Shown here: piece by piece, positions 17,068-25,563 of the stretch | Position numbering within the stretch: the first letter of the stretch is position 1 | Layout: every line of letters begins with the position of its first letter | NCBI GenBank assembly: GCA_963775515.1 | Contig: CAVZIQ010000003.1 | Location: 198,308-262,307 of the forward strand | DNA: 64,000 nucleotides | Origin: an uncultured Alphaproteobacteria bacterium | Lineage (GTDB): Bacteria; Pseudomonadota; Alphaproteobacteria; Rhizobiales; Xanthobacteraceae | Direction of reading: 5' to 3' | Notes under the pieces: model-generated | The model's input: the letters and a program-made list of their open reading frames with translations, nothing else | Databases searched by the model: none | Told to the model about the DNA's origin: nothing | Translations under genes and position numbers: made by a program

Positions 17068-18072
17068 CTAATGCGTCTTGCCGGCCGGCTGCGGAGTGTA
17101 TGTCGCCCGTTGTTCCACGCGACAGACGTTTTCTATTTTATCGCCGCGTAAGCGCGTCAGGACGCGTGGCGGCATGGTCTGCTGCTCGGCCATTCCGCCG
17201 TCGATTTCGATAAGGTTCTGTCCGTCCGCCCGAACGACAAAAGCATTCGAACCGTGGCAGTTCGTCATGTCCTCTTGCGCGGCGAGAAGCGCGGTGTTGC
17301 GCGGACTGTTTTCGATGTCCTGGCCGTGCAGCAACACCACGCCGGCCGCATGGCATCCAGCCCCGGCGCTGCTCTCGTATGCGAAATAGCCGACCGCGAC
17401 GGGAGCGGCGGCCGGATCCAGCTTTATATTCAAATAGCGCGCGATAGAGGGACTGAACGGGCCAGGAAGATCGAGCGTCGAGGCGTCCGCCACGGTGATT
17501 TCGTTCGCGAGCTTTCGGGTCGGCAGTTTTTGCAACGGTTTGCCGGCGCGGACTTCCTTACAGAGCGCAGGCGCATGGTCTTCGGTCAGCGCCGCCGAAT
17601 AATGCCGCTTGAACTGGCAAAGCTCGCCACCGTCGGGTTTGACAACGTCATACGGTCCATCGTCTGCCTCGTAGACGACGTAATACGCGCCCTTGAACCG
17701 AAAGATGCGCGGAATCGTTCCGAGCTCCATGTCTTGGCCGATCGAACCATAAAAATTCACTTCGCTGCTTGGTGCGGCCGCTTGCTCGGCGGCCGATAGC
17801 GGCTTGGTGCTGGCGACGATGCTATGCACATGGGCCGTGCCCTGCTCGATGATGTAGACGTGGCGCAATTTGCCGTCGCCGGCGATATCGACCGGATCCG
17901 GGTAGCCCCAAAGTTTGCTTTGATCGCCGCGATTGTAAGCTGCCGCGATATAGGAGCAGACGTCGCCAGTGGCGGATGCGGCCGGCGGTTGCGCGGCGGC
18001 ACAAAGCTTCGAACTCGCTACCGTGCAACAGAACGCGGCGAGAGCAACAATCGCGACAGCAAGCGCTTTCAT
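17068..18072 (-). CDS. Secreted protein of unknown function
   Basis: Signal peptide 'MKALAVAIVALAAFCCTVASS' at the internal ATG at 18072. Lies 61 nt downstream of the Pat-like gene on the same strand. Confidence 0.6.
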   Translation of the reverse strand: MKALAVAIVALAAFCCTVASSKLCAAAQPPAASATGDVCSYIAAAYNRGDQSKLWGYPDPVDIAGDGKLRHVYIIEQGTAHVHSIVASTKPLSAAEQAAAPSSEVNFYGSIGQDMELGTIPRIFRFKGAYYVVYEADDGPYDVVKPDGGELCQFKRHYSAALTEDHAPALCKEVRAGKPLQKLPTRKLANEITVADASTLDLPGPFSPSIARYLNIKLDPAAAPVAVGYFAYESSAGAGCHAAGVVLLHGQDIENSPRNTALLAAQEDMTNCHGSNAFVVRADGQNLIEIDGGMAEQQTMPPRVLTRLRGDKIENVCRVEQRATYTPQPAGKTH

Positions 18073-18133
18073 CCGGACGGTGAAGTTTGGTTCTGGTCCG
18101 GCGGCCGAAGCCGCCAACTCATGAATAGCCAGA

Positions 18134-21638: not shown

Positions 21639-21698
21639 TGCCGCGCCGTGTTCGGGCGAGTGAAATACGACAATTCCGAAAAAGGGAGATGCCGCGCC

Positions 21699-22223
21699 AT
21701 GAAAAACGCTACGCGACAGTTTGCGGTTCTTTCTCAGGGCGTTATCGCCGGCGCAGCAGGCGGCTTGGCAGAGGTCGCCTGGGTGACGTTTTATGCCGGC
21801 GTGACCGGCGGCGATCCCGCGGTTCTGGCGCGCGGCGTCACTAGCGCCGCCGGGGTAAGCGCGCTTTTGCCAACGTCGCCGGCGACGCTCGGCGCCGGTA
21901 TACACATGTCGCTCGCGGTGGCGCTTGGCGTTGCATTGTCCTTCGCTTGGTCGGCGTTGCGCGAGTGCCGGTCGAGCCTGACCAATCCCTATCCGCTGAT
22001 GCTGGCGGTGCTGGCCGCAGTCTGGGCCGTCAACTTCTTTATTGTGCTGCCGGTCGTCAGCCCGGCTTTCGTCCACGTGGTTCCTTATGCGGTCAGTCTG
22101 ACCTCAAAGCTCTTGTTCGGTGCGGCTGCGGCGGAAGTGCTGCGGCGACAGCCTCGGACAATGTCGAGCCTCGCGCCGGTCGCCGTGCGCAAACGTTCCG
22201 ACCGACGCGATCTTAAACGATAA
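21699..22223 (+). CDS. Integral membrane protein of unknown function (likely FixK-controlled)
   Basis: Shine-Dalgarno AAAGGGAGA precedes the ATG at 21699. About 4 hydrophobic helices. No recognised domain. Confidence 0.6.
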   Translation: MKNATRQFAVLSQGVIAGAAGGLAEVAWVTFYAGVTGGDPAVLARGVTSAAGVSALLPTSPATLGAGIHMSLAVALGVALSFAWSALRECRSSLTNPYPLMLAVLAAVWAVNFFIVLPVVSPAFVHVVPYAVSLTSKLLFGAAAAEVLRRQPRTMSSLAPVAVRKRSDRRDLKR

Positions 22224-23243: not shown

Positions 23244-23335
23244 AGCCGATTTCCTCCATTGACGGCGGGTTGTTGCATTGCTGGCGCCGCCTAGCAAGCG
23301 CGGTACACCGCCCGCAGTGATGCTATAATAAATCG

Positions 23336-24556
23336 ATGGCGCGTATATTCATCAATTACCGACGGGACGATACGCCCGGCGTCGCCGGGCGGTTGTTCGA
23401 TTACCTGACGAAGAAATATTCCAGGCGCGAGCTATTCATGGATGTCGATGCCATGGAGCCGGGCCGCGACTTCGCCAAGCAGCTGGCCAGTCAAGTCTCC
23501 CAATGTAATGTGTTGCTCGCCGTGATCGGCCCGCACTGGCTTGACGCCCACGACCAAGCCGGCAAGCGCCGGCTCGACAACGACAAGGACTATGTGCGCA
23601 TCGAAATCGCCTCGGCGCTTCAGCGCGATATTGCGGTGATCCCGGTGCTGCTCGACGGCGCCGCCATGCCGCCCGAAGAGAGCTTGCCCGACAATCTCAA
23701 GCCGCTGGTCCGCCGTCACGCGCTCGAACTGCGTCACACCCGCTTCTCCGCCGACGCCGATGCGATCGTCCATGCGCTTGAAGCCGTGGTGCCGCGGCGC
23801 AGCGTTCCTTGGACCTGGATCGGCGGCGGCGTCGCCCTGGCGGCCGTCGCAGCGATCGCCCTGCTGTGGCCGAGATTGCACGCAAGAGCCGTACCGCAAC
23901 AGCCGGTTGCCGTTGCCGTGCAAGCGCCGGCACTTCCGCCGGTCGCTGCCTTACCCCCGCAGGTGCAAACGCCGGCGCCGGCGCAGCAGGCGAGCGCACC
24001 GACGCTGCCGGCACCCCCGACGGACTTCGGGCTACCGGCGGACGTCAAGCTCGGCGAAATGCTCAATGGCATCGCCTTTCCCGGCTCGATCATGCGCGTG
24101 ACCAGCATCTCGGCCGACCCGGCGGTTTGTCAGGCCGCGTGCCGCGCCGAACCGCGCTGTGCGGCTTGGACCTACACGCAGCCCGGCGCTGCTGATGCCC
24201 CGGCGCACTGTTCGCTGAAGGAAGTCATCCCCGGGCGGGTTGCGAATACGTGTTGCGTATCCGGTATCGAGCGCGAACCGCCGCCCGAGATGCGCGAGCC
24301 GCCGCCGGTTTCGGTTACCGTTAGCGGCGCTCAGCGCGGTATCGAATTGCAGGGCGGCACCTATCGTTTTTTCGGCGATGCCACTCCGGAAGCATGCCAG
24401 GCGGCGTGCCGCGCCGAGGGCCAATGCCTGGCGTGGGATTACGTGCGTCCCGGTATCTACAGTCCCGATGCCCGATGCTATCTGAAAGACAAATCTTCGC
24501 GGCCGGTGGCCAGCCCGTGCTGTGTTGCCGGTTTCGAACGGTCGGAGACAAAGTGA
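23336..24556 (+). CDS. TIR-domain protein with single TM helix and two C-terminal PAN/Apple-like modules
   Basis: aa 1-150 'IFINYRRDD...LLAVIGPHWL...DYVRIEIASAL...VIPVLLDG' is TIR_2-like. TM at aa 159-178. Pro/Ala linker. Two repeats 'CQAACRAEPRCAAWTY...HCSLK...CC' and 'CQAACRAEGQCLAWDYV...RCYLK...CC'. Confidence 0.85.
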   Translation: MARIFINYRRDDTPGVAGRLFDYLTKKYSRRELFMDVDAMEPGRDFAKQLASQVSQCNVLLAVIGPHWLDAHDQAGKRRLDNDKDYVRIEIASALQRDIAVIPVLLDGAAMPPEESLPDNLKPLVRRHALELRHTRFSADADAIVHALEAVVPRRSVPWTWIGGGVALAAVAAIALLWPRLHARAVPQQPVAVAVQAPALPPVAALPPQVQTPAPAQQASAPTLPAPPTDFGLPADVKLGEMLNGIAFPGSIMRVTSISADPAVCQAACRAEPRCAAWTYTQPGAADAPAHCSLKEVIPGRVANTCCVSGIEREPPPEMREPPPVSVTVSGAQRGIELQGGTYRFFGDATPEACQAACRAEGQCLAWDYVRPGIYSPDARCYLKDKSSRPVASPCCVAGFERSETK

Positions 24557-25563
24557 TCCGCGCCGGAATCGTCGGACTTGGCCGCTGGGGCCGCGCGCTG
24601 GTCGACGCCGTTGCCGGTAAAAGCGACGACATTCGTTTCGTGCGCGCCACGACGCGCACGCGCGCCGGCGCCGAAGAGTTCTGTCGCGAGCGCCGGATCG
24701 CTGTGGCCGACAGCTATGACGAAATTCTGCGCGCGCCGGATATCGATGCCGTCGTGCTCGCCACGCCGCACAGCCAGCATGAGGCGCAGGCGCTTGCCGC
24801 GATCGCCGCCGGCAAGCATGTCTTCGTCGAAAAGCCGCTGACGCTCGATCATGACAGCGCGCTTGTCGTCGCCGATGCCGCACGCAAAGCCGGATTGGTT
24901 TTAGCCGTCGGCTTCACGCGGCGGTTTCATCCAAGCATCGCCGAGCTGCGGCTGCGCGCACGCGACGGCCGGCTCGGCAGCATCGTCGCGATGGTGGCCC
25001 AGCACACCACCTCGACCGCGCAATTCATTGCGCCGGACAATTGGCGTGCGTCGGCTGAAGAAGCGCCGGGCGGCGCCTTCACCGCTGTCGGCGTGCATGC
25101 GCTCGACCACATGATCGAGCTCGCCGGCCGCGTGCGCGACGTACGCTGCGTCACCGCGCGCAACTATCCGGGCCCGTCCGACGATACGACCACGATCATG
25201 CTGCGGTTCGAGGCCGGAGCAAGCGGGTTGCTCTTCGGCTCGGTGGCGACCGCCACCAATTTCGAGTTCACCGCCTATGGCACCAACGGTCTCGTCGAAA
25301 TTTCCCGTCCCGACCTGTCGCATTTTCGTTTCGTGCCGACCGCGACGGCCGCGCCGACCGGCGTGATAGCCGCACCGGCGGACGATATTTTGCAATTCCC
25401 CGGGTTCGACATGTTGCACGCCGAAATGACCGCGTTTGCCCGCGCGATTCGCGATGCTACGCCCTATCCGGTGCCGATCGCCGACGTGCTCCATGGCATG
25501 GCGGTGTTCGATGCCGTCGTGGAGTCGGCAAAATGCGGCGAAATCGTTGCCGTCCGCAACTGA
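24553..25563 (+). CDS. Gfo/Idh/MocA-family NAD(P)-dependent oxidoreductase
   Basis: GTG start overlapping the TIR stop (GTGA). 'IRAGIVGLGRWG' Rossmann motif. 'VVLATPHSQHEAQALAAIAAGKHVFVEKPL'. Confidence 0.85.
   Translation: MIRAGIVGLGRWGRALVDAVAGKSDDIRFVRATTRTRAGAEEFCRERRIAVADSYDEILRAPDIDAVVLATPHSQHEAQALAAIAAGKHVFVEKPLTLDHDSALVVADAARKAGLVLAVGFTRRFHPSIAELRLRARDGRLGSIVAMVAQHTTSTAQFIAPDNWRASAEEAPGGAFTAVGVHALDHMIELAGRVRDVRCVTARNYPGPSDDTTTIMLRFEAGASGLLFGSVATATNFEFTAYGTNGLVEISRPDLSHFRFVPTATAAPTGVIAAPADDILQFPGFDMLHAEMTAFARAIRDATPYPVPIADVLHGMAVFDAVVESAKCGEIVAVRN

Follow-up and report, generated by a model that had tools for sequence, protein, structure and literature searches.

The 64,000-nucleotide stretch of contig CAVZIQ010000003.1 analysed here (the window), from an uncultured bacterium of the Xanthobacteraceae, carries on its forward strand a complete gene at 23336..24556 whose 406-residue product combines an N-terminal TIR domain of the SARM1 type, a single transmembrane (TM) helix, a proline- and alanine-rich stalk and two PAN/apple modules, PAN-A and PAN-B. 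This protein, which we call TIR-PAN, is one member of a large uncharacterised family in which the ectodomain is swappable. We are confident of the architecture and of the predicted topology, in which the TIR domain is cytoplasmic and the PAN modules are periplasmic. To the further reading that a periplasmic cue gates an active NADase from the outside in we assign a probability of roughly one half.

The open reading frame (ORF) extends from an ATG at 23336 to a TGA ending at 24556 and encodes the 406 residues exactly as quoted in an earlier reading made from the sequence only, which had divided them into a TIR_2 domain (residues 1-150), a hydrophobic helix (residues 159-178) followed by a Pro/Ala-rich spacer, and two PAN_4 modules; every one of these parts was recovered. 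The TIR domain (residues 1-152; 23336..23791) matches Pfam TIR_2 (PF13676) over residues 4-133 with E 1.9e-10 and 41.7 bits, against a gathering score of 28. There is one hydrophobic segment, at residues 159-178 (Kyte-Doolittle 1.89), within the helix that AlphaFold2 (AF2) places at residues 159-181 (23810..23878) and which would act as a signal anchor. The stalk that follows, predicted to be periplasmic (residues 182-239; 23879..24052), is 48% proline plus alanine. PAN-A (residues 240-313; 24053..24274) and PAN-B (residues 330-402; 24323..24541) have six cysteines each and together account for a PAN_4 (PF14295) match of E 5.2e-25 and 87.7 bits (gathering score 27) in two stretches, the first at residues 252-295; PAN-B also matches PAN_1 (PF00024) at residues 350-390 (E 1.1e-8, 35.2 bits, threshold 21.4). 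The AF2 model that the sequence-only reading had suggested, built from an alignment of 42 homologues and having a mean pLDDT of 83, contains a folded TIR domain (residues 1-151), the TM helix, a disordered stretch in the stalk (residues 184-222, pLDDT below 50) and two PAN folds with pLDDT above 90. No second copy of the gene was found in the window with tblastn.

By sequence and predicted fold the TIR domain is of the SARM1 type, and no protein of solved structure other than human SARM1 comes close to it. When all Protein Data Bank (PDB) sequences were searched with phmmer, the TIR region matched only the TIR domains of SARM1 and of Caenorhabditis elegans TIR-1 (E 4e-6), and a profile of 55 diverse family members again retrieved only these (E 1.6e-9), none of the bacterial TIR structures reaching E <= 0.01. 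The top Foldseek match of the AF2 model is likewise the human SARM1 TIR domain, with a target-normalised TM score of 0.83-0.87, an rmsd of 2.0-3.0 A and 24-27% identity; the TIR domains of plant RPS4 and Roq1, IL-18R-beta and SPARTA score four orders of magnitude weaker, at E ~1e-4 for IL-18R-beta and the plant proteins. We inspected the positions that make up the SARM1 active site, numbering SARM1 by our own residue count, which the mutations named in PDB entries (G601P, H685A and E642A) bear out. HMMER pairs KDYVRIEIASAL of the query with KDWVHKEIVTAL of SARM1, so that residue 90, the glutamate within 'DYVRIEIASAL' (codon at 23603..23605), meets the glutamate of 'WVHKE'. The equivalences are E90 to E642, Y86 to W638, G43 to G601, D36 to D594, and Y8, R9 and R10 to Y568, R569 and R570; a glutamate at the E642 position of the alpha-C region, the BB-loop glycine and the NAD-pocket residues are thus all present in the alignments.

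Conservation of these positions was followed in four alignments, of 42 TIR-PAN proteins (A1), 54 diverse genomic homologues (A2), 143 sequences (A3) and 55 distant representatives (A4). A1, A2 and A4 show no variation at E90, D36, G43, W68 or D85, and in A3 the conservation of E90 is at least 90%, which bears out the earlier placement of E90 at the catalytic glutamate site. The position of Y86 stays aromatic, with phenylalanine or tryptophan in relatives, and the motif D-x-V-R-x-E-[ILV] occurs in nearly all of the first 120 matches. Because the catalytic glutamate, the BB-loop glycine and the pocket residues are conserved and SARM1 is the closest relative, the domain bears the hallmarks of an active NADase-type TIR, and it is from this conservation that we infer activity.

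The predicted protein is a single-pass type II membrane protein (N-terminus in, C-terminus out), an assignment made from the statistics of the family and the nature of its domains. A hydrophilic N-terminus and a first TIR beta-strand that begins as early as residue 4 leave no place for a signal peptide, in line with the sequence-only reading; practically every homologue has a TM segment at about residues 155-185. Among 226 family proteins having an N-terminal TIR domain followed by a TM segment, lysine plus arginine in the 15 residues on each side averages 3.1 before the segment and 1.8 after it, with more before than after in 150 proteins and the reverse in 13. Of 224 proteins, 202 have an even number of cysteines C-terminal to the TM segment, the parity that exported domains with disulfide bonds should show, while the TIR part is poor in cysteine. 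In relatives, moreover, the PAN part is replaced by OmpA-like, PG_binding_1, SH3_3, LprI or DUF4189 domains, modules that function outside the cytoplasm. All three lines agree with the orientation proposed earlier. In a related metagenome-assembled genome (MAG), two genes upstream of the TIR-PAN orthologue, there is a gene (locus L007, 5993-6568, reverse strand) for a standalone 191-residue protein in which a clear signal peptide precedes two PAN_4 modules, which indicates that PAN modules are exported in these bacteria. Such soluble periplasmic PAN proteins thus occur alongside the receptor, and they might present its ligand or compete with it for that ligand.

In the PAN part, the cysteines at positions 265, 269, 275, 292, 306 and 307 of the first repeat and 354, 358, 364, 381, 395 and 396 of the second are nearly invariant. 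Foldseek matched this part to the apple domains of factor XI and prekallikrein (E 2e-8) and to the Sarcocystis lectin SML-2, with a high rmsd because two domains were aligned together; the matched SML-2 structures are galactose-binding lectins. PAN/apple modules bind proteins or carbohydrates. Typing of the repeats in homologues gave three PAN types, arranged as AB in the query, ABC most commonly, and ABAB or ABABC, so that the array grows and shrinks by whole modules; PAN-B shares 79% identity with the second repeat of P0002, a homologue that has five. Across 41 TIR-PAN homologues, mean identity to the query is 80% in the TIR domain, 60-68% in the PAN modules and 35% in the stalk, the least conserved part.

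That the architecture is not a singular fusion is evident from its recurrence, for which the sequence-only reading had suggested a survey. A word-indexed search returned 1209 homologues, the top ~90 of which are TIR_2 plus PAN_4 proteins of 400-706 residues with one to five PAN repeats. An exhaustive HMMER search with residues 1-200 returned 35,058 clusters (at 50% identity) at E <= 1e-3 and 8,082 at E <= 1e-30. Among the 146 closest new 50%-identity representatives, 55 have an N-terminal TIR domain, one TM segment and at least 80 residues outside, while the rest include 12 with several TM segments, 22 with none and 20 with tandem TIR domains. Pfam scans of two independent samples, the 54 genomic homologues and the 55 representatives, found the TIR-TM module joined at its C-terminal side to FGE-sulfatase, TPR, Peptidase_C14, DUF4189, PDZ_2, PG_binding_1, SH3_3, OmpA, LprI, Sel1, WD40 and PAN domains, and the module is shared across ectodomain types at 45-75% identity. 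At least five MAGs have two paralogues by a restrictive pattern scan. Receptor families show just this pattern, in which the cytoplasmic part, here the TIR domain, stays constant and the binding module outside the cytoplasm varies.

Several members of this family deserve mention in their own right. The Peptidase_C14 ectodomains of L035 (8001-9461) and L043 (7013-8446) are caspase-like, with the catalytic cysteine motif altered to 'DASRQNP' or 'DGARRNP', and are probably inactive caspase folds serving as periplasmic binding modules. An ectodomain of about 130 residues (residues ~220-350 in L023, P0097, P0108, P0111 and P0112), of the form 'WAGNWVGVWFARSGMES...CKVNGNTANCEL...', has no Pfam match and makes up a periplasmic domain family so far uncharacterised; the TIR-TM module that carries it is about 70% identical to that of the query. 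The C-terminal ~90 residues of L024, L029, L030 and L032-L042 share the motif 'V.LGD....V....G.P', have no significant Pfam match and, by eye, resemble BamE/SmpA-type folds; the loci form a synteny group of their own in Methyloceanibacter-like MAGs. A cultured strain, Microvirga massiliensis JC119, has a family member (L061, 7995-9053) whose ectodomain contains the LCCL-like motif 'VYTGDSEVCRAALHAGVI'; other cultured carriers of family members are Zoogloeaceae G21618-S1 (L080) and Nitrosomonas sp. Nm132 (L086). Many close relatives, P0125, P0130, P0139 and P0144 among them, have two TIR stretches per protein, some of them with a TM segment. In 'MFD' MAG assemblies (L018, L021, L027, L028, L047 and L072) the TIR-PAN or TIR-TM ORFs are cut short, most likely through assembly frameshift errors and not as true pseudogenes. 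A homologue with a small ectodomain on a Paraburkholderia sp. PGU19 chromid (L088, 4001-4849; TIR domain 45% identical) has its N-terminal part outside the ORF and may be a pseudogene or a sequencing error.

The genomic setting is that of a stable, vertically inherited, standalone chromosomal gene and not of a mobile defence cassette, since synteny is kept, no partner is conserved, no phage carries a match and no defence island is present. The identical 406-residue protein occurs on seven metagenome contigs with neighbours as in the window, the nearest non-identical orthologue is 81% identical, and the gene order Amidohydro_2, TIR-PAN, (GFO), CspA, MntH, MntR, GlmM, LldD, CynS is kept down to 54% identity. 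In a restrictive pattern scan of one genome per GTDB species, full-length TIR-PAN was found only in uncultured soil MAGs of the Xanthobacteraceae and Alphaproteobacteria; the TIR-TM module occurs also in Bradyrhizobium, Pseudolabrys, Methyloceanibacter, Hyphomicrobium, Microvirga, Nitrosomonas, Zoogloeaceae, Acidobacteriota, Binatia and others. Clustering of the ORFs of 78 loci gave no neighbour that recurs family-wide, the recurrences being confined to synteny blocks of sub-clades, which answers the question about conserved neighbours raised earlier. Next to TIR-PAN, PADLOC returned only the generic helix-turn-helix of an MntR-like repressor, weakly, against Csa3/CARF-type models, and across the 55 ORFs of the window only a generic ABC ATPase against mad3/AriA, so the earlier remark that no ThsA-like partner lies nearby holds for the whole window. 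Phage records gave no match, and the six matches in plasmid or chromid records are all TIR-only and at most 45% identical.

TIR NADases, including SARM1, plant TIRs, AbTir, ThsB and others, complete their active site across an interface formed by self-association. On this background we propose that the periplasmic PAN modules, carried on a flexible Pro/Ala stalk that could let them reach well into the periplasm, bind an extracytoplasmic glycan or protein cue, which could be an envelope component, a damage product, a phage protein or a competitor protein. Gain of ligand, or loss of a tether, would alter the clustering of the receptor in the inner membrane; clustering would bring the cytoplasmic TIR domains together, and their self-association would form the active site, as in SARM1 and in plant and other bacterial TIRs. 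NAD+ would then be cleaved, resulting either in NAD+ depletion, with arrest or death, or in a signal derived from ADP-ribose. In this scheme the cleavage of NAD+ by the TIR domain, the ligand, clustering as the activating step and the consequence for the cell are all inferred. Whatever the outcome, a location among housekeeping genes, together with genomes that hold several paralogues differing in their ectodomains, fits a repertoire of sensors at least as well as it fits classical abortive infection, and the wall-binding and lysozyme-related ectodomains of relatives suggest envelope damage as one relevant cue. Still more tentative, and in our estimate possible but short of probable, is the generalisation that bacteria have a widespread class of outside-in TIR receptors, each with a SARM1-type NADase in the cytoplasm that is controlled directly, across a single TM helix, by a lectin-like or wall-binding module in the periplasm.

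Some of the evidence weighs against outside-in gating. The argument for NADase activity is entirely one of residue conservation. The query's own TM segment has balanced flanking charges, with two lysines or arginines on each side, so the topology is drawn from family statistics and domain logic. About a quarter of the close representatives are without a TM segment or have tandem TIR domains, and membrane anchoring is therefore not obligatory in this TIR clade. Finally, abortive-infection genes do not typically sit at a stable housekeeping locus, and the outcome might accordingly be a non-lethal signal that needs an unlinked reader protein.

A variant of the proposal, in which loss and not gain of binding activates, would make the protein a guard of envelope integrity: the ectodomain, tethered to peptidoglycan or glycan, would keep receptors apart until damage by lysins, lysozyme or competitor toxins released them, allowing the TIR domains to cluster and cleave NAD+. 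Relatives with peptidoglycan-binding or lysozyme-related ectodomains (OmpA, PG_binding_1, SH3_3, LprI) speak for this, as would the long Pro/Ala stalk if, as we suppose, it can reach the cell-wall layer. PAN, FGE-sulfatase, TPR and caspase-like ectodomains, however, are not known wall binders, and we regard the variant as doubtful.

An alternative with sensing in the cytoplasm is a signal generator of the Thoeris kind, in which the TIR domain would sense an intracellular (phage) cue and make a signal of the cADPR type for an effector encoded elsewhere, the TM helix and PAN modules serving only as an anchor. The query does have features in common with Thoeris ThsB and the single-gene TIR defence proteins, which are also TIR_2-type with a catalytic glutamate, some of them encoded by a single gene and one with a TM segment. 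Many bacterial TIRs are signal generators (10.64898/2025.12.03.692087), and a housekeeping location is compatible with a non-lethal signal. The resemblance to Thoeris components is nonetheless partial and below threshold, amounting to 31 bits against PADLOC ThsB1 over residues 3-71 only and 37.6 bits against NCBIfam ThcB4 (Thoeris type III), far under the curated cut-off of 220. No Thoeris-type effector (SIR2/SLOG, Macro-TM or similar) is adjacent, the neighbours being an amidohydrolase, a sugar dehydrogenase, CspA and MntH, and no effector is conserved at the loci. The query also differs from these systems in lying outside a defence island and away from phages and mobile plasmids, and none of them has been described with an extracytoplasmic ligand-binding domain. 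The exchange of ectodomains on a constant TIR-TM module is moreover hard to square with a mere anchor, and on balance we consider a signal generator of this kind unlikely. The sequence-only reading had taken the TIR proteins of antiphage systems such as Thoeris to be soluble and to work with partner genes. This does not hold for all bacterial TIR proteins, as single-gene TIR defence systems have been reported in Escherichia coli, including one in which the TIR domain is combined with a TM segment (PMC11350192).

The TIR domain could instead be a non-catalytic scaffold making protein-protein contacts only, in a structural or adhesive envelope component or a protein that signals from the inside out. 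Many animal TIRs are scaffolds, and conservation of the glutamate does not always track with activity (PMC7075850). Against this, the catalytic glutamate, the BB-loop glycine and YRR are invariant and the aromatic residue at the W638 position is conserved in hundreds of proteins, the nearest solved relative is the NADase SARM1, and an inner-membrane anchor cannot display an adhesin on the cell surface; a scaffold role is thus very unlikely. Bacterial TIR proteins that interfere with host Toll-like receptor signalling do exist, but a host-directed virulence factor of the TcpB/BtpA/TcpC kind, or an inverted topology with an exported TIR domain, is scarcely credible for a protein whose TIR domain starts at residue 4 with no signal peptide or secretion signal, whose family's positive-inside statistics and cysteine parity oppose export of the TIR domain and whose family profile, run against the PDB, detects no bacterial TIR at E <= 0.01, and which is carried by free-living soil Xanthobacteraceae and their relatives.

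Returning to the proposed receptor, it is instructive to compare it with characterised systems. The TIR domains of SARM1 and TIR-1 are its best match in sequence and fold, sharing the catalytic glutamate, the BB-loop glycine, the YRR motif and the pocket aromatic residue. The query nevertheless is without the ARM and SAM domains, the octamer scaffold and the NMN/NAD allosteric site of SARM1, and its TIR domain is N-terminal and tethered to the membrane, with a periplasmic ectodomain, whereas that of SARM1 is C-terminal. Regulation must therefore differ from that of SARM1. A SARM1 orthologue can be ruled out, as Pfam found only TIR_2 and PAN domains and the TIR domain is N-terminal. The affinity to SARM1 agrees with a preprint in which the SARM1 TIR domain is nested among bacterial sequences, within one of their clades (PMC13142454); a survey published in 2020, on the other hand, reported that it had found no bacterial SARM1 homologues (PMC7075850).

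The sequence-only reading had also attributed to the protein the topology of Toll-like receptors, a comparison that is sound in logic and wrong in polarity. With Toll-like and IL-1 receptors the query shares outer binding repeats, one TM helix and an inner TIR domain whose proximity to its like would be the signal. It is, however, a predicted type II protein with an N-terminal TIR domain, no signal peptide and no leucine-rich repeats (LRRs), whereas Toll-like receptors are type I with a C-terminal TIR domain; its ectodomain is of the PAN type and not LRR or Ig, and its TIR domain is of the enzymatic SARM1 type and not of the scaffold type found in Toll-like receptors. The likeness is one of analogy and not of homologous architecture.

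Two other groups of proteins pair comparable parts. FGS and NPCBM lectin-fold sensors are fused to TIR and caspase effectors in conflict systems (Kaur et al. 2021, PMC8195603), and the combination of a lectin-like sensor with a TIR effector recalls the query, in whose family FGE-sulfatase (FGS) ectodomains occur; those systems, however, are proposed to sense within the cell and usually involve STAND NTPases or adaptors, while the query would sense across the membrane and lacks an NTPase. A single TM helix likewise joins an ectodomain of the PAN/apple or wall-binding kind to a cytoplasmic enzyme in plant G-type lectin (S-domain) receptor kinases and in bacterial single-pass sensors such as PASTA kinases, but there the output is a kinase and not, as predicted here, a TIR NADase, and there is no sequence kinship beyond the PAN fold.

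We found no published TIR-TM-PAN protein and no periplasm-gated bacterial TIR in the literature, with subscription journals thinly covered and an earlier mention possible. With no description found and no known defence system nearby, the earlier statement that this is not a recognisable described system agrees with our results. Some family members are already annotated 'PAN domain/TIR domain' in public databases, so that the combination has been visible though uncharacterised. A recent systematic survey of TIR signalling systems set aside TIR proteins that stand alone (10.64898/2025.12.03.692087), and the TIR-TM receptor class consequently fell outside it. TIR systems that are membrane-associated or consist of a single gene have been described before, and the bacterial TIR proteins in the studies cited act within the cytoplasm as sensors, signal generators or effectors; what seems to be new is a receptor-type, membrane-spanning, SARM1-like TIR protein with interchangeable periplasmic modules.

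If the proposal is correct, a periplasm-gated TIR NADase would be a new input route, by surface or envelope sensing, into NAD-based immunity or stress signalling. The arrangement of extracellular binding repeats, one TM helix and a TIR domain would then have arisen in bacteria as well as in animals. Should the widespread-class reading also be true, the class would be a prokaryotic counterpart of Toll-like receptor logic in which cues such as phage adsorption, wall damage, or competitor or host glycans are detected before anything enters the cytoplasm, and it would lie in or near the bacterial clade that gave animal SARM1 its TIR domain. The swappable ectodomains are a natural chimera series for the study of transmembrane TIR activation, and the family, as bacterial SARM1-like TIRs, may offer simple models for SARM1 enzymology. 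Should the TIR domain be inactive or the ectodomain irrelevant, the finding shrinks to another uncharacterised domain combination.

The start of the gene suggests, though only that, a leaderless mRNA. A perfect extended -10 box, TGCTATAAT (23321..23329, forward strand), ends 6 nucleotides before the ATG, and there is no Shine-Dalgarno motif in the sequence up to 23335. The site was not flagged by a two-hexamer promoter scan because it has no -35 match. Most TIR-PAN orthologues have a -10-like hexamer 6-8 nucleotides before the ATG (L010, L007/L020, L008/L085, L012, L017, L018, L021, L026, L027 and L030), while L009, L016 and L019 have a leader with an AGGAG motif instead.

Immediately downstream is a GFO/IDH/MocA sugar dehydrogenase gene (24553-25563, forward strand) whose GTG start overlaps the TIR-PAN stop (GTGA), suggesting translational coupling; its product is an inositol-2-dehydrogenase-like sugar oxidoreductase, below the curated cut-offs. 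It is ruled out as an obligate partner by its absence from the orthologous loci L007, L008 and L009. We also considered whether the divergent Amidohydro_2 neighbour might be ACMSD, of NAD biosynthesis, and rejected this, as gamma-resorcylate and 2,3-dihydroxybenzoate decarboxylases are closer (E 1e-54 against 1e-22); the gene is of the aromatic-acid decarboxylase type and is missing in L008. The rest of the window encodes a cbb3 oxidase, FixGHIS, Nramp, GlmM and transporters. Two further genes, for a 348-residue protein with an N-terminal hydrophobic segment (17068-18117, reverse strand) and a membrane protein of 187-191 residues (21648-22223, forward strand), have no Pfam, NCBIfam or PADLOC match and are both kept in the syntenic contigs L001 and L002.

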